Shown here piece after piece: positions 547 to 13,027 of a stretch of 46,467 nucleotides of DNA (position 1 is its first letter; every line of letters starts with the position of its first letter). Under the pieces are notes generated by a model. It had not been told where the DNA came from, made no database searches, and saw nothing but the letters and a program-made list of their open reading frames with translations. Position numbers and translations under genes: made by a program. Source of the stretch: an uncultured Gammaproteobacteria bacterium (GTDB lineage Bacteria > Patescibacteriota > Patescibacteriia > Magasanikbacterales > JBBTXJ01); assembly GCA_964610305.1 (NCBI GenBank), contig CAZSVL010000007.1, forward strand, positions 7,742 to 54,208, read 5' to 3'.

Positions 547-1863
547 ATGAAGCAACCAACATTTAACTGCTCTCACTGCGACACCCAATACCAAAAATGG
601 ACGGGCAGATGTTTGGAATGCGGAAAATGGGGAACCGTGATACAAGCATCAAGTGATGCGCCTGATAAAAAAACACTGAGTCCGCCAGGGCAAACCGTCA
701 AACTCAGTGATAAGAGACAAGTAGCGCCACGCACGCATACAAAAATTGCAGAGCTAGACAGAGTTTTGGGGGGAGGCCTGGTACCAGGGTCTCTTTTGCT
801 TTTGGGTGGAGCGCCAGGCATTGGAAAATCTACCATTGGATTGCAGCTTGCCAGCGCACTGCCATCAGTTTTATATTGCTGTGGAGAAGAATCTGTTGGG
901 CAAATTGGCATGCGCGCTAGCAGGCTAGGATTACAAACAAACAACATTTCTTTTTTGGAATCTACAAAGGTGGAAACCATCTGCGCTACTATCGCGCAGC
1001 AAAAACCAAAACTGGCTATTGTGGATTCCATTCAAACAATTCGCAGTTCAGACGCTACTGGTGAACCAGGAAACACAACGCAAATGCGCGCGTGCACCGC
1101 TCAACTTTTGGCGGCTGCAAAATCCGGAAGCACTGCCATATTAATTGTGGGCCATGTTACAAAAGACGGCTCTGTTGCGGGACCGCGCACTCTGGAGCAC
1201 ATGGTAGATACGGTTTTATATTTAGAGGGGGACAGGTTCCATCAGTATCGCCTCCTGCGAGCCGTAAAAAACAGATTTGGCTCTACGGATGAAGTAGGTA
1301 TGTTTTCTATGAACGAAACTGGCCTGCACCAAGTGAGCAATCCCTCTGCAGCTTTTCTAGAGCAGCGTGGAGATGCCGTGCCTGGCTCCGTCCTCACCTG
1401 CCTCATGGAGGGCACCAGATCGCTTTTGGTTGAAATTCAGGCGCTTGTCACTAAGACGCCGTTTGGCTACCCCACGCGCAAAGCAAGTGGTTTTGATAAC
1501 AATAGATTGCAGATACTGACGGCAATTTTGCAAAAACGTAGCGGCCTCTCACTAGAGAGCTATGATATTCACCTAAACGTTGCCGGCGGAATACGCGCGC
1601 AAGAACCAGCAGCAGATTTGGGCGTCTGCCTTGCTATTGCAAGTGCCTACAAAGACAAAATCCTGCCCGCAGAGCTGGTAGCCTTTGGAGAAGTAGGCCT
1701 TGGTGGAGAGGTGCGCCCTGTGTCTCATACAGAAAAACGCATAAAAGAATGCGAGCAGCTCGGCATGAAAAAAATTATTATCCCCTCTCAAAAAAACTCA
1801 GTAAAGTCCTCTCTCATCATAACTCCTGTAAAAAATCTCCAGGATTTGATTGCAAAAGCCTAA
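547..1863 (+). CDS. radA: DNA repair protein RadA/Sms
   Basis: N-terminal C4 zinc finger (CSHC..CLEC), Walker A GAPGIGKS, KNRFG motif, Lon-like C-terminus (GEVGLGGEVR). Confidence 0.97.
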   Translation: MKQPTFNCSHCDTQYQKWTGRCLECGKWGTVIQASSDAPDKKTLSPPGQTVKLSDKRQVAPRTHTKIAELDRVLGGGLVPGSLLLLGGAPGIGKSTIGLQLASALPSVLYCCGEESVGQIGMRASRLGLQTNNISFLESTKVETICATIAQQKPKLAIVDSIQTIRSSDATGEPGNTTQMRACTAQLLAAAKSGSTAILIVGHVTKDGSVAGPRTLEHMVDTVLYLEGDRFHQYRLLRAVKNRFGSTDEVGMFSMNETGLHQVSNPSAAFLEQRGDAVPGSVLTCLMEGTRSLLVEIQALVTKTPFGYPTRKASGFDNNRLQILTAILQKRSGLSLESYDIHLNVAGGIRAQEPAADLGVCLAIASAYKDKILPAELVAFGEVGLGGEVRPVSHTEKRIKECEQLGMKKIIIPSQKNSVKSSLIITPVKNLQDLIAKA

Positions 1864-2810: not shown

Positions 2811-4835
2811 TTATTCCAAATGAATTTTCTCTCTCCACGCATTAAAATACTCCGCCATCTCCGGCCACCTTTCCATGGTAGCGTCGTGCTCAAAAACCCA
2901 TTTAGCCGTTTGCTGTGCTGTCTTAATCAGCGCACTGTCATGCAAGTTGGCCAGTTTCAAATGCATCATGCCAGACTGCGCCTTTCCGTATACTTCTCCC
3001 GGACCTCGCATCTGCAGATCATGCTCTGCCAATTTAAATCCGCTATTTTCTTTTTCAAAATACTTAAGTCGCTCCATGGTTTTCTCAGAAACACTCTCTG
3101 AAAAAACCAAACAAAAAGACTGATGATCAGCACGTCCCACACGTCCTCTAAATTGATGAAGCTGCGCCAAGCCAAATCTATCCGCTCCTTCTATCCACAT
3201 GACGCTTGCATTTGGTACATCTACTCCCACCTCTATGACAGAAGTGGAAACGAGTATGTCTGTTTTGCCCGAAACAAAATTATCCATTACCTCTTTCTTA
3301 TCTGTGCTTTTCATGCGACCATGCAGCAACCCAATACGGTAGTCTTTAAAAACACCGGACAACTGCTCAAAAAGCTGCTTTGCACTTTTAGCACCCACCT
3401 TATCTGACTGCTCAATCAGAGGCGCAATAGCAAAAACTTGTCTGCCCATTTTTATTTGATCTGAAACAAAATTATACGCCTTCTCTCTATGCCTAGCTTC
3501 AACTATTCTTGTTTTAATTGGCTTTCTACCAGGAGGAAGATCAGGAATTATTGACAGATCCAAATCTCCAAATGCGGCCAAAGCAAAAGATCTGGGAATA
3601 GGCGTGGCGGTCATAGAAAGAAAATGGGGAACCAAACTAGCAATGCCGCTTTTTTCTTTTAGGAGCCTACGCTGCTCCACGCCAAAACGATGCTGTTCAT
3701 CTACCACAATCAGACCCACTTTACTAAACGTTACTTTACTCTGAAGCAGTGCGTGTGTGCCTATAATTATTTGCGCGTCATTTGGCTTACTTTTGCCATC
3801 GCTATGAAGCTTGCTAGTACGCGTAATAACGCCAATACTTGTCTGCTTAGATAAAAGCGTACACAGGGTGGAAAAATGCTGATTTGCTAACACTTCTGTA
3901 GGAGCCAAAACCACAACTTGCAACCCTGCAGACACAGCATTAAGTGCCGCAATAGCACACACCACGGTTTTTCCCGATCCCACATCACCCTCTAGCATTC
4001 TATTCATGGGCTGATCCTTCTGACAGTCCAGCAGTATACTCCACGCTGCCTTTTTCTGACTATCGGTTAGAGTAAAGGGCAGTGACTGTACAAATTTTTT
4101 TATCTTGAGCTCATCAAAAGGGATGGGCAATGCTGTTTGCATGCTATTGGTAGCGCGATTAAATTGGCCCAAAAGCTGCACCAAAAAAAGCTCATCAAAC
4201 TTTAGTCTTTTCTGCGCCAGATCAAGCGTAATGGAAGAATCGGGAAAATGATACTGCCCCAGCGCCTCCTTAAGTGATTGCACCCCCGCCTTTTCTTTTA
4301 TTTCTACCGGAAGCCACTCGGGAATATCTATTTCTTCCAAAACCTGGGCAGCAAGAAACCGAAGCTGCTTTTGTGTAACGCCGGAAGTAAGCGGATACAT
4401 AGGTATAATGCGAGCCGTGTTCCGATTATCGCGCGGGCGCTCCCACGCCGGTGAAGACATGTGCAAACCAAACCTATCTTCTTTAACAGCACCGCTGAGA
4501 ACCACCTGCTCGCCAGCCTTGAGCGTCTTTGCAATAAATGGCTGATTAAACCAAACGGCTCGTGCTGATCCTGTTTCATCTTCTATTACCGCCTCTGTCA
4601 TCATCATGCGCTTACGCGGGGTGCGACGCGCGGCGATGTGCCTAATCACGCCTTTTACCGTTGTCTGAGTACCGCTACGAAGCGCTCCAATAGCCGTAAC
4701 ATCTCGCCAGTCTTCATGCCTAAAAGGCAGGTGCCACAAAAGATCTCCGGCAGTTTCAATACCCAATTTGGCCAATTTTTTCTCAAGTTTGTCCCCCACC
4801 TTTTTAAGCTCACGGACAGGCGTATCTAATATCAT
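2811..4835 (-). CDS. recG: ATP-dependent DNA helicase RecG
   Basis: OB wedge domain, GDVGSGKT, DEQH, MTATPIPR, QFRGRVGR, DLQMRGPGE motifs. Confidence 0.97.
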   Translation of the reverse strand: MILDTPVRELKKVGDKLEKKLAKLGIETAGDLLWHLPFRHEDWRDVTAIGALRSGTQTTVKGVIRHIAARRTPRKRMMMTEAVIEDETGSARAVWFNQPFIAKTLKAGEQVVLSGAVKEDRFGLHMSSPAWERPRDNRNTARIIPMYPLTSGVTQKQLRFLAAQVLEEIDIPEWLPVEIKEKAGVQSLKEALGQYHFPDSSITLDLAQKRLKFDELFLVQLLGQFNRATNSMQTALPIPFDELKIKKFVQSLPFTLTDSQKKAAWSILLDCQKDQPMNRMLEGDVGSGKTVVCAIAALNAVSAGLQVVVLAPTEVLANQHFSTLCTLLSKQTSIGVITRTSKLHSDGKSKPNDAQIIIGTHALLQSKVTFSKVGLIVVDEQHRFGVEQRRLLKEKSGIASLVPHFLSMTATPIPRSFALAAFGDLDLSIIPDLPPGRKPIKTRIVEARHREKAYNFVSDQIKMGRQVFAIAPLIEQSDKVGAKSAKQLFEQLSGVFKDYRIGLLHGRMKSTDKKEVMDNFVSGKTDILVSTSVIEVGVDVPNASVMWIEGADRFGLAQLHQFRGRVGRADHQSFCLVFSESVSEKTMERLKYFEKENSGFKLAEHDLQMRGPGEVYGKAQSGMMHLKLANLHDSALIKTAQQTAKWVFEHDATMERWPEMAEYFNAWREKIHLE

Positions 4836-4884
4836 GGCTCTACCGTATCAAAAAAACAAAAAAGCCTCCACTGGGAGGCGCATT

Positions 4885-7659
4885 TTAATCTTCTAGTGAC
4901 GCAAAAAGCTCTTCAATTGAAAGCCGTCTACCCGTCTCTGGGTCAATGGCTCCACTGAGATCTGATTTCCGCAAAAGATTCCTTCTATGCCTGTCTCTTT
5001 CTTTTGGTTTCACATCTAGAGAATTGAGAATCCATTCTACCGTACTCTCAAGATCTTCGGGCAAGTATGACTTGCTACTGCAAAACATAAGCGCTGAGGC
5101 TGTCATCAACGCTTTTTGGTGTGCCGTGGCAGAATCAGGAATGAAATCATTGATTGCCCAAAGCAGCGATGCTTGGTCAAGCACAGCCGTGTTTGTCCTG
5201 CGTGCATGCCGCGCGGCGTGACGCACAATAACTTCAATGTCGGCACCCGTTAGTCCATGCGTAGAGGCGGCGCATCGGGAGTAATCAATGTCGCTGTCCT
5301 CTGCCACGGCAAAGCCATGCCGCCGGATCATCATGTCAAACAGCTGAGCCCGCACTCTATCGTCTGGGAGCAATACAGGCAAACGCTCATCACATCTACC
5401 AGATCGCACCAAAGCAGCATCAAGCAAATCCGGACGGTTGGTAATCTGCACCACAAAAATGCGTCCACGAATAGCAGGATCAGAGAGAAACTGCATTTCT
5501 TTTTGCATCTTGCGCTCAGTTACACCAGAATCCCCATGTTGCTGACCACGCTGTGCTCCACCACCCTGATCAACCTCATCTTTAATCCAAATGCATGGCG
5601 CCAGATCAAACAGCGCCTCGTACGCCATCTCGTCTTTGCGTTCAGTTTCCCCCACCAGCGGATCTCTTGTGTTACGAGACTTCAGGCATAAAATCCCCGT
5701 CTCTTTTGCAAGCGCCATAGCGGCCATAGTTTTGCCGGTTCCAGGTGGTCCGGTTACCAAGCAGCCCATGGGCACAAAGTGGTGATTGCCGGCCTGCATA
5801 TCAAAAGCAACTTCTCTAAAGAGCTCGTGCATGTGCTCATTTCCGCAGATCTGATCAAAGCCAAACACTGGATTAATCACTTCAAACAGATGCCCGTACG
5901 ATTGCTCCAAAAGTTGCTGCCTGTGTTGCAACAAAGCAACCCTATCCACAGCTGAGCCACGAGCTCGTGTGTCGCGCAAGAGGTTAACAATATCTCGGTA
6001 GCCAAACCCCTGCACAATACGCGCAAGCTCGGGCGCTCCCATTTTTGGAATGGCAAAGTAACCCAATGGCCCACTTGCGGCCATGGCTACTTCAATACGC
6101 TGCAAAGCAGATCTGAGCATTCTGATTTTTGCACTATCCGGATTAGCTATCTGCTGCTCATGATAAGCGATTCTCTGCCGAATCTCAGCAGCTTTAGATG
6201 TCCAGCTATCAAGAGCTTTATCAGCTTGCTCCGAGAGCATCCTCCTCATATCTACCAGATGCTTTTGCTCTGCAGTACTGCTCGTATGCGGATTGCCAAT
6301 AGAGCTAAGCAATCCATCTACCTCCAACAGCCTCTGCTGCGCCTGCGCTATCTCAAAGGGTGTACACCAGAGCAATCCGTCCGGTTGGTACGCGACACTC
6401 TTCTCTCCACCGCGCTTCTCCTGTGAATAGATAATCCCATCGCTAAAGCTAAACAACCTATTACACCCATCTCCCACCTGCGCAAGAGTTGGTGCATTGG
6501 GAAGAGAAAGTTCAACTAAACCGCGCCACCTTTTGCGAAATACCCTAAAGGTGCTACTGCGCACGTCTCCCTTTTCAGAAAAACAGATAGTGTCATTTGC
6601 TCTGAGCCGACGCCACTGTTTTGCGCTTGTTAGAGAAGCAAAAGGGTGAGAGGTTCCGTGCTCCAGAATGTTTCTTAGGGTCTCTCGTTCTCTCTCAAGC
6701 TGAATCCGTTCTTTTTCAGCATTGTGTGTCTGAGCCTGAATTTGATCATTAACCATTCCCTCTTGGATGGTTACCGCTTCTCTAAGTGCCCGAACCCCCG
6801 GGTCATGCTCAAGAAAGGTTTCTTTATCAATCTTTAAGTGTCGCTCTAGCTCTGCGTTCTCATCCTCTAGCCGCGCCCTACTCCAAACGCGCGCAACCTC
6901 TTTCTCACTTTCAAAGACCGCCTCAGCTGCAGCCCTATCTTTACTCAAATCTGTAGGCGTTCCTCTACACATGTACTCAAGAAATTTCTGCCGCTCATCC
7001 ACCGATGGCTTATTAACACGAATGCAAAAGACGGGAGAATCTGGTCGTGCCAAGCGCTCATTGACTACCGAGGCCGATGGAGCGCTCATCAAAAGCATAT
7101 GACCAGCTCTGGCAAAATCTTGCATGCTAGCAAGTTGAAGCGCAAACAGAGCAATAGTAATCTCTAGCTTATCTCTTTGACTCTGACTACTGCAGACACT
7201 ATCAACATCTGGCATTACGCCAATAATGGGTCTTTGCTGCCGCGCTGCCTCTTGATAAGCGCGCATGATAAGATCAAATGCCAAATCAAGTCTGGCAGGA
7301 AGCTCTGCAGGTTTTTCATTAAGCGTACCGCGCGCAGTGGCAAATGGATCACCGCTGGTATCTTCTTCTGGCTCTTCTATCAGAGACCTAAACACACCTT
7401 CATCAAATGCTCTTGGAAACTGAAATCCTCTTGCTAAATCGTACTGCCACAACAGTCGTCCGCTCTCACTGAGCGTATGTGCTACTACTGTTTCCCAGCG
7501 ATCCAGCATATCAACCGTTCTTTTGTGTCCAGCCTTTTTGTCAAAAGCTGCTACATCAGAAAGATCAAATCGTGGAAATCCATCCCCCACATTTCCGGTA
7601 AACAAAAAAACGCGGTGCCCTGCCCTCATCGCCTGATCAAACTTTTTTAACCAATGCAT
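4885..7659 (-). CDS. Ycf46-like AAA+ ATPase: degenerate N-terminal AAA module, long coiled-coil insertion, intact C-terminal AAA module
   Basis: Walker A GPPGTGKT, Walker B CIWIKDEVD, SRH TNRPDLLDAALVRSGRCD. N-terminal FLFTGNVGD is a degenerate P-loop. SD AGGAGG. Confidence 0.85.
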   Translation of the reverse strand: MHWLKKFDQAMRAGHRVFLFTGNVGDGFPRFDLSDVAAFDKKAGHKRTVDMLDRWETVVAHTLSESGRLLWQYDLARGFQFPRAFDEGVFRSLIEEPEEDTSGDPFATARGTLNEKPAELPARLDLAFDLIMRAYQEAARQQRPIIGVMPDVDSVCSSQSQRDKLEITIALFALQLASMQDFARAGHMLLMSAPSASVVNERLARPDSPVFCIRVNKPSVDERQKFLEYMCRGTPTDLSKDRAAAEAVFESEKEVARVWSRARLEDENAELERHLKIDKETFLEHDPGVRALREAVTIQEGMVNDQIQAQTHNAEKERIQLERERETLRNILEHGTSHPFASLTSAKQWRRLRANDTICFSEKGDVRSSTFRVFRKRWRGLVELSLPNAPTLAQVGDGCNRLFSFSDGIIYSQEKRGGEKSVAYQPDGLLWCTPFEIAQAQQRLLEVDGLLSSIGNPHTSSTAEQKHLVDMRRMLSEQADKALDSWTSKAAEIRQRIAYHEQQIANPDSAKIRMLRSALQRIEVAMAASGPLGYFAIPKMGAPELARIVQGFGYRDIVNLLRDTRARGSAVDRVALLQHRQQLLEQSYGHLFEVINPVFGFDQICGNEHMHELFREVAFDMQAGNHHFVPMGCLVTGPPGTGKTMAAMALAKETGILCLKSRNTRDPLVGETERKDEMAYEALFDLAPCIWIKDEVDQGGGAQRGQQHGDSGVTERKMQKEMQFLSDPAIRGRIFVVQITNRPDLLDAALVRSGRCDERLPVLLPDDRVRAQLFDMMIRRHGFAVAEDSDIDYSRCAASTHGLTGADIEVIVRHAARHARRTNTAVLDQASLLWAINDFIPDSATAHQKALMTASALMFCSSKSYLPEDLESTVEWILNSLDVKPKERDRHRRNLLRKSDLSGAIDPETGRRLSIEELFASLED

Positions 7660-7688
7660 TGCCCCTCCTGGCTATTTTTTTGTAAAGA

Positions 7689-7743
7689 GCTTTTCACTAA
7701 AGACCGGTGATCTTCAGTGAAAAGCGGGCAACACGTGTTGCCC
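7689..7743. repeat. two tandem intergenic hairpins inside the operon
   Basis: GCTTTTCACTAAAGA/TCTTCAGTGAAAAGC (7689-7725) and the perfect palindrome GGGCAACACGTGTTGCCC (7726-7743). Confidence 0.7.
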
Positions 7744-7747
7744 TTTG

Positions 7748-8362
7748 CTACGCTGCGCTCAGAAGCTCTATAATTGCTTTAAGTTCGGTGTAATCAGTGA
7801 CACCGGTAATGGTGAGGTGTCCGTCCTCACTTAATGTTACCTGCACTCGTCCGTCAGCTAACTGCTCGGCCGAGTATTTGTCAGTGAACAGATGAATACG
7901 CTGATTGGACGAACCGCGAAGAGGCTGATTTTCGGCATCAAGCTGATCAAATGGCCCATCAATGAGCACATCTAGCTGAGCTAAAAACGCCTTGCTACCC
8001 TCTGGAGCGTCATCGCTCTGCAAATGATCAAGGGTATAGCCGCTCCAGCTCAGTGTTGACAGACCCATTAATCTGCAAAAGCGCGCCAATGGGGCTAGAG
8101 CTTTTGCCTGATCAAAAGGCTCACCGCCGGAGAAACTCACTCCTTCAATACCATGGTCTTGCTTGGCTCGCTCAATTTCTCTAAAGAGTGAAATAACGCC
8201 GCGCTCGGTGGCGGGTTTATCCGGAATTAACTCCGGCGTAGAGCACCCAACACACTTTATACTGCAGCCACGAACCCACAGACAGGCACGTTTGCCTGGG
8301 CCCATAGCTGTTGTGCACGGCTCAAAGACGCCTACATTTACCCTATACCTCCGATAGCTCAT
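7748..8362 (-). CDS. NrdG-like radical SAM (4Fe-4S single cluster) activase-family protein
   Basis: GPGKR..WVRGC, CxxxCxxC (CSIKCVGC), SGGEPF, DVLIDGPF, LRGSSNQR. No nrdD in the window. Confidence 0.9.
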   Translation of the reverse strand: MSYRRYRVNVGVFEPCTTAMGPGKRACLWVRGCSIKCVGCSTPELIPDKPATERGVISLFREIERAKQDHGIEGVSFSGGEPFDQAKALAPLARFCRLMGLSTLSWSGYTLDHLQSDDAPEGSKAFLAQLDVLIDGPFDQLDAENQPLRGSSNQRIHLFTDKYSAEQLADGRVQVTLSEDGHLTITGVTDYTELKAIIELLSAA

Positions 8363-8568
8363 GCCTTCTGCTTTACAGAAGTATGGTGCTTGTGCTCCTG
8401 TGGAGGCAATCTTGGGTCTAGATCTTTCTCATCTTCTGAACTCACACCAAAACATTCAAGCAAAGCGTTAAACAAATCATCTCGCTCGCTGCACTGCTCG
8501 CCAACAGGCAAGGACAGATCAATGCGCGTCTGACCATTTGGCTTCATGGTGGCTCTTAGCTTTGCCAC
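8359..8568 (-). CDS. small DUF2997-like protein
   Basis: 69 aa; the MKPNGQTRIDL..GEQC pattern resembles DUF2997. Overlaps both neighbours. Confidence 0.65.
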   Translation of the reverse strand: MAKLRATMKPNGQTRIDLSLPVGEQCSERDDLFNALLECFGVSSEDEKDLDPRLPPQEHKHHTSVKQKA

Positions 8569-9161
8569 TACGCGATCACCTTTTGCTTGTCTGTAATTTC
8601 CGTTTCCATGATGAGCGTGCCGTCTTCCTGCCTTGCAGTCTTAACATCTGAATCTCCAACTATCTTGAGCGCCCCTTCAATTGATTGCTCGGTATAGGCT
8701 TTATTGATGGCATTTTTCATGAAACGGATAACACCCGCCTCTGTTCCACGCGTATCGCTGATCTCTCGACAACGAAGATTCTCGCCATGCTGATAGATAC
8801 CAACTTGACTGTCGCCACGCTTTAAAACACCCAGACACTTTGATCCCGGAAAATTTAGAGCGGCGCTCTTATAAGCCCTGTCAATCTGCTGTTGCTCTTC
8901 CTTATCTGTTCCACGCGCAACAGGCCTATGAAACTCCTGCTCAACCTTAAACGTGTCAGTCTTATGCTGAGCATTAAGTTTTTCTGCTGCCTTATGCAGT
9001 GCCTCTTTTGCCACATGTCCACGCAAAGCCGCCCAATCCATCTTAGCAAGCTTTTTGGCAAGCTCTGGCCTTACTTTTGCTACTTTTTCAATGACCTTAG
9101 AAATATCTTGCGTGCCCCTAAAAAGATTGCTAAATCTGGCTGAAACATAATGTCTAGACAC
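8568..9161 (-). CDS. DUF1257/Ycf35-like protein
   Basis: MS(R)H start and a C-terminal VGIYQ...INKAY...LKIVG...EDGTLIM pattern typical of DUF1257. SD GGAGG before GTG. Confidence 0.6.
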   Translation of the reverse strand: MSRHYVSARFSNLFRGTQDISKVIEKVAKVRPELAKKLAKMDWAALRGHVAKEALHKAAEKLNAQHKTDTFKVEQEFHRPVARGTDKEEQQQIDRAYKSAALNFPGSKCLGVLKRGDSQVGIYQHGENLRCREISDTRGTEAGVIRFMKNAINKAYTEQSIEGALKIVGDSDVKTARQEDGTLIMETEITDKQKVIA

Positions 9162-9248
9162 AGCTTCTCCTCCCTTTTTACACCTATATCTACTTTACAC
9201 GCTACAGAATAAAAGTCAACAAAAAAGAGCGTGATGCTCTTTTCTTTG

Positions 9249-9320
9249 TGTCCCCAGTAGGAGTCGAACCTACATCGCAGGCTCCGCAAGCCTGTATTCT
9301 ATCCATTGAACTATGGGGAC
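9249..9320 (-). tRNA. tRNA-Arg(GCG)
   Basis: GTCCCCA/TGGGGAC acceptor stem, anticodon arm CAGGC-TTGCGGA-GCCTG, T loop GGTTCGACTCC. No encoded CCA. Confidence 0.93.
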
Positions 9321-9442: not shown

Positions 9443-9946
9443 CTACAATTTCAGCATCCGTCCAAGCTGGCTGGTCAGAGGCTCGTCATCCTTGTCTTCG
9501 GATTCCGGCAAATATTGTAGCAAAAGTTCTCTAATCTGTAAAGGGTCCAAGTTCCCCAGAGGAGCAGAAAATTCTCCAATGGTAAATACACCCGGCTGAA
9601 AATACACACGATGCACATTGCCCGGCTTGTATACTATCCAAAAATCATCAATCTCTCTATATTTCAAAAATTTTCTCCCAATTTTGATTCCCGCTGTGGT
9701 GATCTCGCAACTTACGTCCGGAGCGTCATTAACCTCCATCAAAAAATAAACAAGTGCTATCAAAATAATAACAACGCCAAAAATATAGTTAGCAGTCCAC
9801 AGAGAATAGAGCAGCAAAAGGCCAGCTGCTAATGTGGCAATAAAATACCACTTAGTACTTCTTTCCGGTGTCTCGTACTCCTCAAATGACCATCCCAAAA
9901 GCACATCTCCGTGGTGCTCAGAACGCTTTTTCTTTTTCTTAGCCAT
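9443..9946 (-). CDS. conserved CPR membrane protein (DUF5673-like, two TM segments plus PH-like domain)
   Basis: W..EEY..ERS..WY motif, two hydrophobic segments, ITTAGIKIG. Confidence 0.75.
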   Translation of the reverse strand: MAKKKKKRSEHHGDVLLGWSFEEYETPERSTKWYFIATLAAGLLLLYSLWTANYIFGVVIILIALVYFLMEVNDAPDVSCEITTAGIKIGRKFLKYREIDDFWIVYKPGNVHRVYFQPGVFTIGEFSAPLGNLDPLQIRELLLQYLPESEDKDDEPLTSQLGRMLKL

Positions 9947-9971: not shown

Positions 9972-11612
9972 TTATTGCCCATAAATGTCTGCGTACGCTG
10001 CGCGGTATATCTCAAAGGCAATATCGCCACTGTTTGTGTTTACAAAATCAGGCACTATCTCTGCACTCACAAACTCCTGTTTAACTGCTTGCGCAAACTC
10101 GTCAGAGGTGCCATCATCTCGCTTGGTCTTGTCGGTAGCATGGATATAAATAAGCTCACCGTCTTTCTGCAGCTGCTCAATAAGCTCCGGGTTTAAATCC
10201 AGCTGATTCCACTGCTTGCTGCTGAGCAATGGCCACCCCTCTTGCAAGAGCCTCCTGTAAAAAACCCAAAAATATGTTTGATACCCCATTGTGTTATCGT
10301 AAATAAATATTAAGCGGAGCGGCTGACCGCTTTTTTCCGATCTCTTTGCTTGAATAAACTCCGTAACGCTTGGACGCAGATTAAAGGGCAAATAAGTACT
10401 AACGCGCCCTTGCGTCAACTCTCCCACACGCTCATTCAATGCAAAAATACCGTAATCTTTTCTTTCCAAGGCAGACGCGTACGTGAGAGACCTGTAGCCA
10501 TAAGGTCCACCGTAGTTATTCGCAAAAATAGAGTTAAACGCAAAGAGTAATTCAAAAATTATGACAGCTCCAATTACAAACTTCCGCCTAAGTTCAACTA
10601 CAAAAGCCGCAGCCAACATCGCCATAAACACCGTACTATAAAAGAAGAATCTACCGGCCGTATCTGCAAACCACACAAAAACAAGACTGGAAAGCAGCAT
10701 TAAGGTGGTAAATTTCCATCCAAAATGAATTTTCTTTTTTTTATCTATTGCAAAAAAGCCGATCGCTTGAATAGTGACAATAAATAGTATGGGGCTAATA
10801 TAATAAAAGAGGGATCTCATATCTGCCAAACGCTCCAGCGTAGATCCTCTTTGCTCTTTTCCCAACAGAACAAGCCATTGTGTTTTTTGCTTGAGCAATG
10901 TGGCAATCTGAACATCAAAATGCCCAACCGTTTTATAAAGCATTACATTGTAAATTATCACCGGAGAGACAACGGCCAGCAGCGGCACCATTGCACGCAT
11001 CCATGGCATTCTTTTTTTGTATATAACATAGGCAAAAACAGGAAGGAAAAAAAACGCAGTGTATTTTGCCAGAATTGCCGCGCCAAAAGCAGCCCCAAAC
11101 CATGGCACATACTTCTTATCTTCTAGTGCTTTTAAGAAAATCAAAGTGCTCAAAAGTATAAAAAAGAGCGTGACGGATTCCATCATAGAAGATCTACCGT
11201 AAGCGATCGCAAAATCGTTTACTGCCCATAGCGAGCTGGCAACCAAGCCCGTCTTTTTATCAAAAAGAAGAGATGCAATGTAAAACAGCACAATGACAGA
11301 TCCTATATCAAGCAGAGCAGAGGGCAATCTGGCTTGAGCAACACCAGACCCAAAAATCCTCTGAGAAACATGCTGCAGCATAAAAACTAACGGTGGATGA
11401 TCATGAAAAGATAGCTTTTGCCACCACGGCTGAACATCAAACCAATCCAGCGGCGTGGTCTGTAGCGGCGTTCCCAACGTGTCTACATAATCTATGGAGC
11501 GCACGCTATAAGCCGGCTCATCCCCTATTAAACCGTCGCTTCCCAAGGCAAATAAACGCAGACCAGCGGCCAACAAAACAATAAGTCCTAGAATTCTTTT
11601 CTCTCTGCTCAT
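9972..11612 (-). CDS. GT-C fold glycosyltransferase (ArnT/PMT, family 39/83-like)
   Basis: DE motif (GDEP), DHPPL, ARLPSA, LAKYTA, many TM segments. ATG 11612 preferred over GTG 11621. Confidence 0.85.
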   Translation of the reverse strand: MSREKRILGLIVLLAAGLRLFALGSDGLIGDEPAYSVRSIDYVDTLGTPLQTTPLDWFDVQPWWQKLSFHDHPPLVFMLQHVSQRIFGSGVAQARLPSALLDIGSVIVLFYIASLLFDKKTGLVASSLWAVNDFAIAYGRSSMMESVTLFFILLSTLIFLKALEDKKYVPWFGAAFGAAILAKYTAFFFLPVFAYVIYKKRMPWMRAMVPLLAVVSPVIIYNVMLYKTVGHFDVQIATLLKQKTQWLVLLGKEQRGSTLERLADMRSLFYYISPILFIVTIQAIGFFAIDKKKKIHFGWKFTTLMLLSSLVFVWFADTAGRFFFYSTVFMAMLAAAFVVELRRKFVIGAVIIFELLFAFNSIFANNYGGPYGYRSLTYASALERKDYGIFALNERVGELTQGRVSTYLPFNLRPSVTEFIQAKRSEKSGQPLRLIFIYDNTMGYQTYFWVFYRRLLQEGWPLLSSKQWNQLDLNPELIEQLQKDGELIYIHATDKTKRDDGTSDEFAQAVKQEFVSAEIVPDFVNTNSGDIAFEIYRAAYADIYGQ

Positions 11613-11666
11613 CACACTCACCTTACCAAAGTTGGCAAAAACAAAAAAGCGCCGAAGCGCTAATCT

Positions 11667-12395
11667 TTAAAGTGCGGATGCGATACTCTCCGCTACTGCT
11701 TGCGCAGCCTCAACCTTATTTTTAGCCTGCGTAATCGTGCGACCCACCACAAGCATGTGCGCGCCAGCCTCTATGGCGCCAGCGGGCGTGCTAATGCGCG
11801 CTTGGTCATCTGTGCCATCTTCTGGCAAGCGAATCCCTGGCGTCACAGGATTTAGTCCTGCTTCTCTGACAATCGCGGCTTCTTTGGGACTACAGACGAT
11901 CCCTCTGACTCCAACGCTTTTTGCCATGGCCGCAAACTGAGCAACCTTCTGCCCTGGCTCATCGCCAAAGATAGAGACGCATTGATCGCTATCAACAGAA
12001 GTCAAAACCGTAACCGCCAAAACCTTTCCTCCACCCAAGGCGCTTACGGCTTTTCTCATGGCCTGCTCTCCACCACTGGCATGCACGGTTGCGTAAAGAG
12101 GCTCTACTTTTGAAAGCTTCCCAGCCGCGCCGCCTACTGTATTGGGAATATCATGGAGTTTGAAATCCCACATAATTCTTCCCTTAGCTGAGGAAAGAAA
12201 CTTTCTGCCAGCCTTCAGAGATCTAACCGCTCGCTCAAGCCGCTCCTCAATGTGAGGGTCTAAAAGCATTGACATTCCCAGCTGCAAGCCAAGTTTAATA
12301 CCCCCAACATGACCGCGCAGCTCCTCCCACAAATGAAGCGCTGCAAATGCTGTATCAACGTCAGCCGCTACAATGATTCTCTCGTGTGGTTTCAC
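11667..12395 (-). CDS. pyrF: orotidine-5'-phosphate decarboxylase
   Basis: IIVAAD, DFKLHDIPNT, TVHASGG, VTVLTS, TPGIR, DDQ, VVGRTIT. GTG start overlaps the pyrE stop (GTGA) with a GGAGG SD. Confidence 0.95.
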   Translation of the reverse strand: MKPHERIIVAADVDTAFAALHLWEELRGHVGGIKLGLQLGMSMLLDPHIEERLERAVRSLKAGRKFLSSAKGRIMWDFKLHDIPNTVGGAAGKLSKVEPLYATVHASGGEQAMRKAVSALGGGKVLAVTVLTSVDSDQCVSIFGDEPGQKVAQFAAMAKSVGVRGIVCSPKEAAIVREAGLNPVTPGIRLPEDGTDDQARISTPAGAIEAGAHMLVVGRTITQAKNKVEAAQAVAESIASAL

Positions 12396-13027
12396 CAAGA
12401 ACCTCCCTGAGCCAGATATGCTTCTCCGTGGCCAAAATCGGTGTTGATTGGCACTTTGTCTGCGCACAACGGACACTCATCCTCTGCAAAGTCACCAAAA
12501 CTTTTATTCACCGTAGAGATCAACAGTGCAGATGCCACATGCTCTGCACTCAAGCTGCCACGATTCCAGAGTGCTCCCGTAGCTACCGGCATACCGCCAG
12601 CGTTTAAAATAGCGTCCACCACCAAACGCGTGGTTTTGCCGGTGGTCAAAATATCTTCTACAACTACCACGTTTTTATCGGCAACACGATCAGCCCAGTC
12701 ATACGGGAAAGCAAAAGATCCGTCTTCTTGCTTGTCCACACGAATCGCCTGAACAACCTTGGCAACGGTAGAGAGTTCAAATGCAAGGGCATGCGCCAAT
12801 GTAATGGCGCCCATTGCAGGTCCCACCACCACATCCACACTAACCTCCTGTGCTCTCAACTCATCGGCAATCATCCCACAAAGATCATGCACCGCCATCA
12901 CGTTGGGCAAAGCATTTGTTTTTGCAACATAGTGATACCCATGCCTACCAGATGTGTAGACAAAATGCCCCGTCTTAAGCACACCCAATTCTTTCAAAAT
13001 CTGCTCAGCTGCCCTTTGCTCTTCCAT
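12392..13027 (-). CDS. pyrE: orotate phosphoribosyltransferase
   Basis: GHFVYTSGRH, PRPP motif VVVEDILTTGKT, adjacent to pyrF. Confidence 0.92.
   Translation of the reverse strand: MEEQRAAEQILKELGVLKTGHFVYTSGRHGYHYVAKTNALPNVMAVHDLCGMIADELRAQEVSVDVVVGPAMGAITLAHALAFELSTVAKVVQAIRVDKQEDGSFAFPYDWADRVADKNVVVVEDILTTGKTTRLVVDAILNAGGMPVATGALWNRGSLSAEHVASALLISTVNKSFGDFAEDECPLCADKVPINTDFGHGEAYLAQGGSW

Follow-up and report, generated by a model that had tools for sequence, protein, structure and literature searches.

The protein families Ycf46, Ycf35 (DUF1257) and DUF2997 are conserved in bacteria and plastids alike, and to our knowledge no mechanism has been described for any of them. In Synechococcus elongatus the ycf46 operon is induced at severe oxidative stress in a (p)ppGpp-dependent manner, the accessible part of that report giving no mechanism (PMC13683863). 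In cyanobacteria the DUF2997 and ycf35 genes adjoin a ferredoxin gene to form the cluster DUF2997-ycf35-fed7, as described in the portion of the source available to us (PMC4284462). Here we analyse four genes, p1 to p4, in a stretch of 46,467 nucleotides (the window; positions count from its first letter) of contig CAZSVL010000007.1, GenBank assembly GCA_964610305.1, from a candidate phyla radiation (CPR) bacterium of the Magasanikbacterales (Patescibacteriota). An initial annotation had read them, from the sequence alone, as an operon of DUF1257/Ycf35, DUF2997, radical S-adenosylmethionine (SAM) and Ycf46-like AAA+ genes. We find that the four genes are a divergent, reduced variant of a widespread gene cluster that has no name. 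Literature searches (supplements outside the search) returned no paper on this radical-SAM-linked cluster, and its five-gene linkage recurs across many phyla; the module is, as had been proposed, conserved and, in the literature searched, undescribed.

In its usual form the cluster encodes a membrane helix-hairpin-helix (HhH) protein, an NrdG-like radical SAM enzyme, a Ycf46-type AAA+ ATPase of ~540 amino acids (aa), a DUF1257-like protein and a DUF2997 protein. The gene-neighbourhood survey, suggested with the initial annotation, consisted of a genome scan and a metagenome scan with a radical SAM alignment (80 loci each, 160 together), and loci were scored for the five genes with home-built profiles. 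Of the 160 loci, 75 held the full set of five; among the 79 that span 12 kb or more, 52 did so, and 13 had only the radical SAM gene. A p4-like AAA+ gene was found in 62 of the 80 genome loci, which come from Bacillota, Actinomycetota, Myxococcota, Planctomycetota, Methanobacteriota, Melainabacteria-type cyanobacteria and others. Two layouts recur, AAA - ~150 aa - ~70 aa - ~250 aa - radical SAM, and ~320 aa - radical SAM - AAA - (DUF1257-like) - (DUF2997). Pfam named the ~70-aa partner DUF2997 in five of five tested and found HHH_3 in six of six tested partner proteins of 250-337 aa, whose hydrophobic N-terminal segments, read from the alignment, resemble membrane helices. This HhH protein is the fifth gene of the canonical cluster; it is missing from the window, and the initial annotation had missed it. 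The metagenome scan yielded one close locus, truncated (L092). On viral contigs the full set of five genes was found in 1 of 80 loci, and the radical SAM gene alone in 77 of 80. A deltaproteobacterial/myxobacterial variant without the HhH gene was also observed (L035, L065, L068, L123, L150), in which the AAA+ gene lies on the strand opposite to the radical SAM gene and ends in another conserved tail, ...P(L/I)(T/A)SRF(G/S).

The product of p3 belongs to the radical SAM superfamily. It carries the CxxxCxxC and SAM-binding GGE motifs and scores above cut-off with Fer4_12 (PF13353; 1.6e-28, 100.2 bits, cut-off 22) and Radical_SAM (PF04055; 7.9e-9, 36.3 bits, cut-off 29.5), which bears out the initial assignment. 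All 17 sequences of an alignment keep residues C33/C37/C40 and G79-G80-P82. Among named families p3 scores best with NrdG (TIGR02491), aligning over profile positions 6-151 of 154 at 85.8 bits, under the cut-off of 126.1, and the closest solved structure by sequence is the pyruvate formate-lyase (PFL)-activating enzyme 3c8f (E 3.3e-6, residues 11-111). The initial annotation had remarked that p3 is NrdG-like with no glycyl-radical enzyme in the window, and this holds genome-wide, nrdD included: NRDD (PF13597) and Gly_radical (PF01228) gave zero matches in the assembly (1.09 Mb, 26 contigs, 99.57% complete), and as positive controls the same profiles matched 6 and 3 of 14 genomes. As the genome holds no reductase for it, p3 is not a ribonucleotide-reductase activase; it is rather an activase-like enzyme without a textbook substrate.

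A further difference between p3 and NrdG is a C-terminal extension (residues 170-203), which resembles a DUF2997 hairpin plus helix with the Cys loop deleted. Aligned over 97 rows, extensions of this type matched the DUF2997 alignment (hhalign 89.6%, E 1.9e-6). Viral NrdG-like matches mostly end near p3 residue 156 and have a median length of 164 aa, compared with 202-209 aa for the cluster type. A word-indexed search returned 835 relatives of p3, the closest named ones from Candidatus Uhrbacteria (47-57% identity), then from Bacillaceae (about 40%); in PHROGs, solely NrdG-like and unnamed AAA families were matched. We also built a quick, arbitrarily rooted tree of 83 rows, with random draws of 35 from the 75 five-gene loci and of 30 from the 77 viral loci, 13 loci with the radical SAM gene only, and five from the window's class (p3 and its four relatives). 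Here p3 groups with two relatives from its own class (Shimodaira-Hasegawa-like approximate likelihood ratio test, SH-aLRT, 99) and falls within a larger group of 54 rows, all cluster-type enzymes (SH-aLRT 91); of the 30 viral NrdG-like rows in the sample, 23 form a group apart from it.

The product of p4 matches the classical AAA profile (2.8e-22, 80 bits) and AAA_lid_3, as the initial annotation had it. It looks active, to judge from its intact Walker A/B, pore-loop and arginine-finger motifs; the arginine finger was found by script, and the Walker B DE (D694-E695), which the script pattern missed, was read by eye in the translation. In an hhalign comparison with 56 AAA+ proteins of ~540 aa, the E value was 3.2e-40 for residues 507-849, and residues 70-230 matched the N-domain of that family at E 5e-4 and 31% probability. 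The ~540-aa family, cyanobacterial matches included, is the one that we take to be Ycf46, and near full-length matches to it occur in 105 of 151 genomes sampled from the cyanobacterial phylum, so the reading of p4 as Ycf46-like holds. Between the N-domain and the AAA module lies an insertion of ~270 aa that the initial annotation had missed. It is common to three relatives only, has one relative in the word-indexed search, and gave no usable protein atlas match and no recognisable family. Pfam searches of the p4 N-domain and insertion, and of the extra genes of two related loci described below, gave nothing or weak beta-propeller matches.

For the two small proteins the initial family names stand in part. 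Pfam DUF2997 (PF11211, cut-off 24.1 bits) does not match p2 even at E 10, nor did this profile match anything in the window's genome. Remote homology does connect them: p2 and two orthologues aligned with 61 DUF2997 proteins of syntenic loci over 47 columns (hhalign 94.2%, E 1.1e-7), and of those 61, five of five tested exceed the Pfam cut-off. Cys26 of p2 is invariant in 13 of 13 aligned proteins, and in two relatives (L090, L091) a DUF2997 gene lies directly upstream of the radical SAM gene, the same position as p2. Judged by remote homology, the conserved Cys and gene position, p2 is a divergent DUF2997 protein. A glycyl radical at the Gly three residues before this Cys was considered as a candidate and ruled out, the Gly not being kept in close relatives.

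Neither p1 nor any of 34 members of its family matches DUF1257/Ycf35 (PF06868, cut-off 22.2 bits), and the DUF1257 profile has no match in the window's genome. Even the canonical ~150-aa partner matches PF06868 only below threshold, in 5 of 10 members (best E 8.7e-4). The p1 family is small, with 35 cluster representatives of about 170 aa in an exhaustive profile search, and shares the N-terminus MSRHY. Its C-terminal half gave a weak match to the profile of the DUF1257-like partner (hhalign 35%, E 4e-4, 78 columns). The AlphaFold2 (AF2) model of p1 (predicted local distance difference test, pLDDT, 88; predicted template-modelling score, pTM, 0.83) is an alpha+beta fold with a helical insert; in that of the partner (pLDDT 78) strands and helices follow one another in the same order. 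Of their 50 top PDB entries 23 are common to both models, with a KA1-like fold at modest scores (Z 5-6 for p1, 7-8 for the partner), and both match the BFVD entries A0A7S5REL3 and A0A125SJ50. A Foldseek search of p1 against the PDB found nothing at E <= 0.001, the word-indexed search gave one relative, and the protein atlas gave weak leads (best 0.88), one cluster carrying DUF1257 on 28% of its members. It also occupies the gene position of the DUF1257-like gene. The resemblance is weak, and p1 is probably, though not demonstrably, a DUF1257-like protein with a helical insert. A C-terminal Gly-Gly was rejected as a general feature of the small proteins, being present in 10 of 34 p1-family members and lacking in those of the window.

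Within the window's class the radical SAM gene occurs in 5 of 301 genomes. Two of the relatives (L088, L089) have the window's layout with the long AAA+ gene and one extra gene each between p3 and p4, of which one has no family and the other is weakly beta-propeller-like; the other two (L090, L091) have the order DUF2997 - radical SAM - short AAA+. One relative keeps p1 at 60%, p3 at 73% and the p4 insertion at 65% identity. In L089, paralogous beta-propeller-like genes (L089:7402-8514 and L089:11400-12548) flank the long AAA+ gene, both ending in ...WADASFG. The family profile detected no HhH partner in the window's genome, and the close relatives are likewise without the gene. The module had initially been called retained in a reduced genome; presence in 5 of 301 genomes does not separate retention from acquisition, and that wording is dropped.

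In canonical clusters the AAA+ and HhH proteins end alike, the former in RGGRx-h-D-hydrophobic, the latter in (G)Rxx-D-hydrophobic; examples are L003:3884-5539 with L003:6237-6995, and L073:7622-9244 with L073:6030-6998. A GRxxD-hydrophobic tail was found in 73 of 98 AAA+ and 84 of 97 HhH proteins, compared with 1 of 95 DUF2997, 0 of 82 DUF1257-like and 0 of 158 radical SAM proteins. Among open reading frames (ORFs) of at least 100 aa, 165 of 3142 bear the tail, 157 of them from the AAA+ or HhH family. Tail and HhH gene occur together in 48 loci, are both absent from 10 and occur singly in 5, counts which, like those of linkage, overstate the statistics because relatives are not independent. 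The window falls into the class with neither: p1, p2 and p4 have no terminal tail, and p4 has an internal GRRLSI only. Glycyl-radical enzymes carry the motif RVxG-aromatic, with which the tails were compared.

The tail also follows linkage in the 151 cyanobacterial-phylum genomes, of which 53 hold the radical SAM family. Among the matches listed, 18 AAA+ proteins reach the tail end and 16 of these adjoin a radical SAM gene, the 16 being spread over 13 small genomes (1.8-2.2 Mb); the others end by model position 533 and none of them adjoins a radical SAM gene. For these listed matches, then, the tail is tied to the linked form of the system. AAA+ matches in the large genomes reach E values of about 1e-175 to 1e-190.

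Further features were observed in this phylum. Some small genomes hold two radical SAM-AAA+ pairs. Beside an AAA+ form of ~569-577 aa, which is the second pair in three genomes and the only listed pair in three others, the radical SAM match contains one in-frame stop, TAA, TAG or TGA by genome (G301:C11:8691-9269, G349:C1:80077-80667, G409:C1:224051-224629, G331:C14:9986-10564, G346:C50:10018-10599, G343:C4:125299-125877); the match may just run into the upstream gene. Among ten radical SAM loci from large, photosynthetic-type genomes, three have a second radical SAM gene of ~272 aa upstream (L268:5052-5867, L269:5216-6034, L272:5842-6663), and one has a photosystem reaction-centre gene nearby.

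We tentatively favour the reading that p3 is a protein-directed radical SAM enzyme acting on its own module and working with an AAA+ unfoldase. The activase core is kept, the enzyme is linked to an AAA+ gene, its extension resembles DUF2997, tail and HhH gene co-occur, and the motifs of p4 are in place. In such a scheme p3 would cleave SAM reductively, in the manner of glycyl-radical activases, and the 5'-deoxyadenosyl radical would be used on a protein of the module. One candidate target is the DUF2997 loop with its invariant Cys; another, in canonical clusters, would be the GRxxD-hydrophobic tail in which both the AAA+ and the HhH protein end. The small proteins would be adaptor or target, p2 might dock via the hairpin module that it has in common with the p3 C-terminus, and p4 may unfold the partner that bears the radical or the modification, or else deliver or recycle it. 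For a predicted p3-p2 complex the score was 0.01, which speaks neither for nor against docking.

Several points weigh against this reading. The Gly preceding the DUF2997 Cys is not conserved in close relatives, and 25 of the 84 HhH tails lack their Gly. The tail idea cannot explain the window's variant, as p1, p2 and p4 have no terminal tails. In all ten of the large photosynthetic-type cyanobacterial loci the radical SAM gene has no AAA+, DUF2997, DUF1257-like or HhH gene within ~6 kb, implying that the enzyme can do without a linked partner or has another target. Finally, locus counts such as 52 of 79 are not independent, relatives sharing their layouts.

The genes themselves are laid out as follows (Table 1). 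As initially annotated, the four are co-oriented between recG and tRNA-Arg, all on the minus strand, and the first three overlap, p1 and p2 by 1 nucleotide (TAGTG) and p2 and p3 by 4 (ATGA), which suggests translational coupling. The strong ribosome-binding sites noted before the first and last genes are present, GGGAGGAG 7 nucleotides upstream of the p1 GTG and AGGAGG 6 nucleotides upstream of the p4 ATG. Of the promoter and terminator initially ascribed to the unit, the terminator is borne out by a terminator-like hairpin and T-run after p4; the promoter-like site is there but weak, and such sites occur in the region at chance level (4 observed, 4.1 expected from shuffles). A second terminator-like hairpin, between p3 and p4, was absent from the initial annotation; it could split or attenuate transcription within the operon, so the unit may be p1-p2-p3 plus p4.

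Table 1. Positions of the features of the p1-p4 locus and its surroundings in the window
Feature	Position	Strand	Details
p1	8568-9161	minus	197 aa, GTG start; ORF translation
p2	8359-8568	minus	69 aa, GTG start; ORF translation
p2 Cys26 codon	8491-8493		
p3	7748-8362	minus	204 aa; ORF translation
p3 CxxxCxxC	8243-8266	minus	script-located motif
p3 GGEP	8117-8128	minus	script-located motif
p3 C-terminal extension	7754-7855	minus	residues 170-203
p4	4885-7659	minus	924 aa; ORF translation
p4 N-domain	6958-7659	minus	
p4 lineage-specific insertion	6145-6957	minus	~270 residues (235-505)
p4 AAA module	5113-6141	minus	
p4 Walker A	5728-5751	minus	script-located
p4 pore loop LVGETE	5641-5658	minus	script-located
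p4 internal GRRLSI	4915-4932	minus	C-terminal region, 10 residues from end
Promoter-like TTGACT-16-TAAAGT	9192-9219	minus	upstream of p1; 9/12 positions match
Terminator-like hairpin GGGCAACACGTGTTGCCC	7726-7743	minus	within the 88-nucleotide p3-p4 gap; T tract weak (GCTTTTCACT)
Intrinsic-terminator-like hairpin + T-run	4850-4879	minus	directly 3' of p4; hairpin 4864-4879 GCCTCCCAGTGGAGGC, then TTTTTTGTTT
radA	547-1863		
recG	2811-4835		flanks p4 side; TIGR00643 668 bits, cut-off 659
tRNA-Arg(GCG)	9248-9320		flanks p1 side
ORF past tRNA	9443-9946		167 aa; no NCBIfam match
ORF past tRNA	9972-11621		549 aa; no NCBIfam match
pyrF	11667-12476		

Four other explanations were weighed. The module might act as a stress or redox checkpoint, as the cyanobacterial ycf46 operon may, with the AAA+ protein remodelling targets in the stressed cell and the radical SAM iron-sulfur protein serving mainly as an oxygen- or redox-sensitive switch or regulator, not as a modifier of a partner. 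The near full-length AAA+ family in 105 of 151 cyanobacterial-phylum genomes and the housekeeping genes that flank related loci would suit such a role, as would the induction of the ycf46 operon at severe oxidative stress and its (p)ppGpp dependence (accessible part of PMC13683863) and the ferredoxin gene beside DUF2997 and ycf35 (accessible part of PMC4284462). We nevertheless consider it unlikely: the activase has all of its catalytic motifs, an argument for catalysis, none of the four proteins of the window showed a regulator or sensor domain, and the cyanobacterial data concern expression rather than mechanism.

The initial annotation had also entertained a conflict-type role. In an anti-phage system of this kind the radical SAM enzyme would be an effector, for example by making a toxic nucleotide or damaging incoming DNA held by the HhH protein, and the AAA+ protein a sensor or switch. 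The flanks of 22 five-gene loci (105 proteins) hold mostly metabolic, transport or envelope genes, the exceptions being one locus with Mrr and HNH genes, one with a transposase and one with a serine recombinase, and in four gut-type loci the cluster is kept beside the 5-enolpyruvylshikimate-3-phosphate (EPSP) synthase gene. PADLOC returned no match for p1, p2 or p3 and for p4 a generic AAA domain only (IetA, 3.4e-16), its score against the IetA/IteA model (NF042959) being 60.3 bits against a cut-off of 510. With flanks mostly housekeeping and viral copies rare (1 of 80 viral loci with the system), a defence role is not supported. The scattered distribution (5 of 301 class genomes, yet many phyla), the large partners that differ between lineages, the resemblance of the p4 AAA domain to IetA/IteA and the HhH DNA-binding partner of the canonical form speak for a conflict role; on balance we think it improbable, and a housekeeping or stress function more likely than phage defence.

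Lower in our estimate, and quite improbable, is a nucleic-acid-directed enzyme. Here DNA or RNA, brought in by the HhH protein, would be what the radical SAM protein modifies or repairs, the KA1-like fold binding nucleic acid or membrane. HHH_3 was present in all six partner proteins tested, the KA1-like matches include the RNA-binding METTL16 and TUT1, and recG and radA flank the window's cluster; but an HhH gene is absent from the window and from its close relatives, the fold is a common one matched modestly (Z 5-8), and the nearest families of p3 all act on proteins.

That p3 is a regular NrdG and its reductase gene escaped detection, or the cluster a functionless, decaying remnant, might be argued from NrdG being its best-scoring named family, from the 26 contigs and from a variant without HhH gene and tails, but is scarcely credible given a 99.57%-complete genome without NRDD or Gly_radical where positive controls matched, a p3 score under the NrdG cut-off, the C-terminal extension typical of the cluster, four intact frames with coupled starts, and a relative in which p1, p3 and the p4 insertion are 60%, 73% and 65% identical to those of the window; a true NrdG identity for p3 is thus very unlikely.

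To return to the protein-directed enzyme that we prefer, a bolder form of it would be that an activase was recruited to mark a non-enzyme partner, at the DUF2997 Cys loop or the GRxxD tails, and that the AAA+ unfoldase reads or resets the mark. We regard this as speculative and, on present evidence, doubtful. If true, it would constitute a new radical-based protein switch outside the known glycyl-radical enzymes, and the first biochemical handle on Ycf46, Ycf35 and DUF2997 of cyanobacteria and plastids. Whatever the mechanism, in many non-photosynthetic lineages proteins of the Ycf46, Ycf35 and DUF2997 types are firmly tied to an activase-like enzyme of the radical SAM type and to a DNA-binding membrane protein. 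This linkage, and a tail common to two partners, make it testable which protein takes the radical and what the tail binds, and the cluster has culturable hosts among Bacillaceae and actinomycetes. Annotations of 'NrdG' in genomes without NrdD, here a CPR bacterium, are probably wrong.

To conclude, the module can be set beside three described systems. With the anti-phage ATPase IetA/IteA it shares a classical-clade AAA domain in p4; however, the AAA domain alone matches, and CDC48, proteasomal and FtsH models score higher on p4. With NrdG and the PFL-activating enzyme (3c8f/3cb8), p3 has in common the small radical SAM core and its CxxxCxxC and GGEP motifs, but it carries an extra C-terminal DUF2997-like module (~45 aa), scores below the NrdG profile cut-off in a genome without NrdD or a glycyl-radical enzyme, and belongs to a type linked to an AAA+ gene, not to a reductase. 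From the cyanobacterial and plastid systems the window differs in the divergence of p1 and p2, which the Pfam models of Ycf35 and DUF2997 fail to recognise, and in the ~270-aa insertion of p4; in cyanobacteria, moreover, the radical SAM homologue is unlinked in the 10 large genomes sampled, and the AAA+ matches, among those listed, end short of the C-terminal tail. Nevertheless, the AAA+ protein of cyanobacterial and plastid ycf46 is of the family of p4, and DUF2997 and DUF1257-like genes stand side by side in the module too, as they do in the DUF2997-ycf35-fed7 cluster described in the accessible part of PMC4284462.

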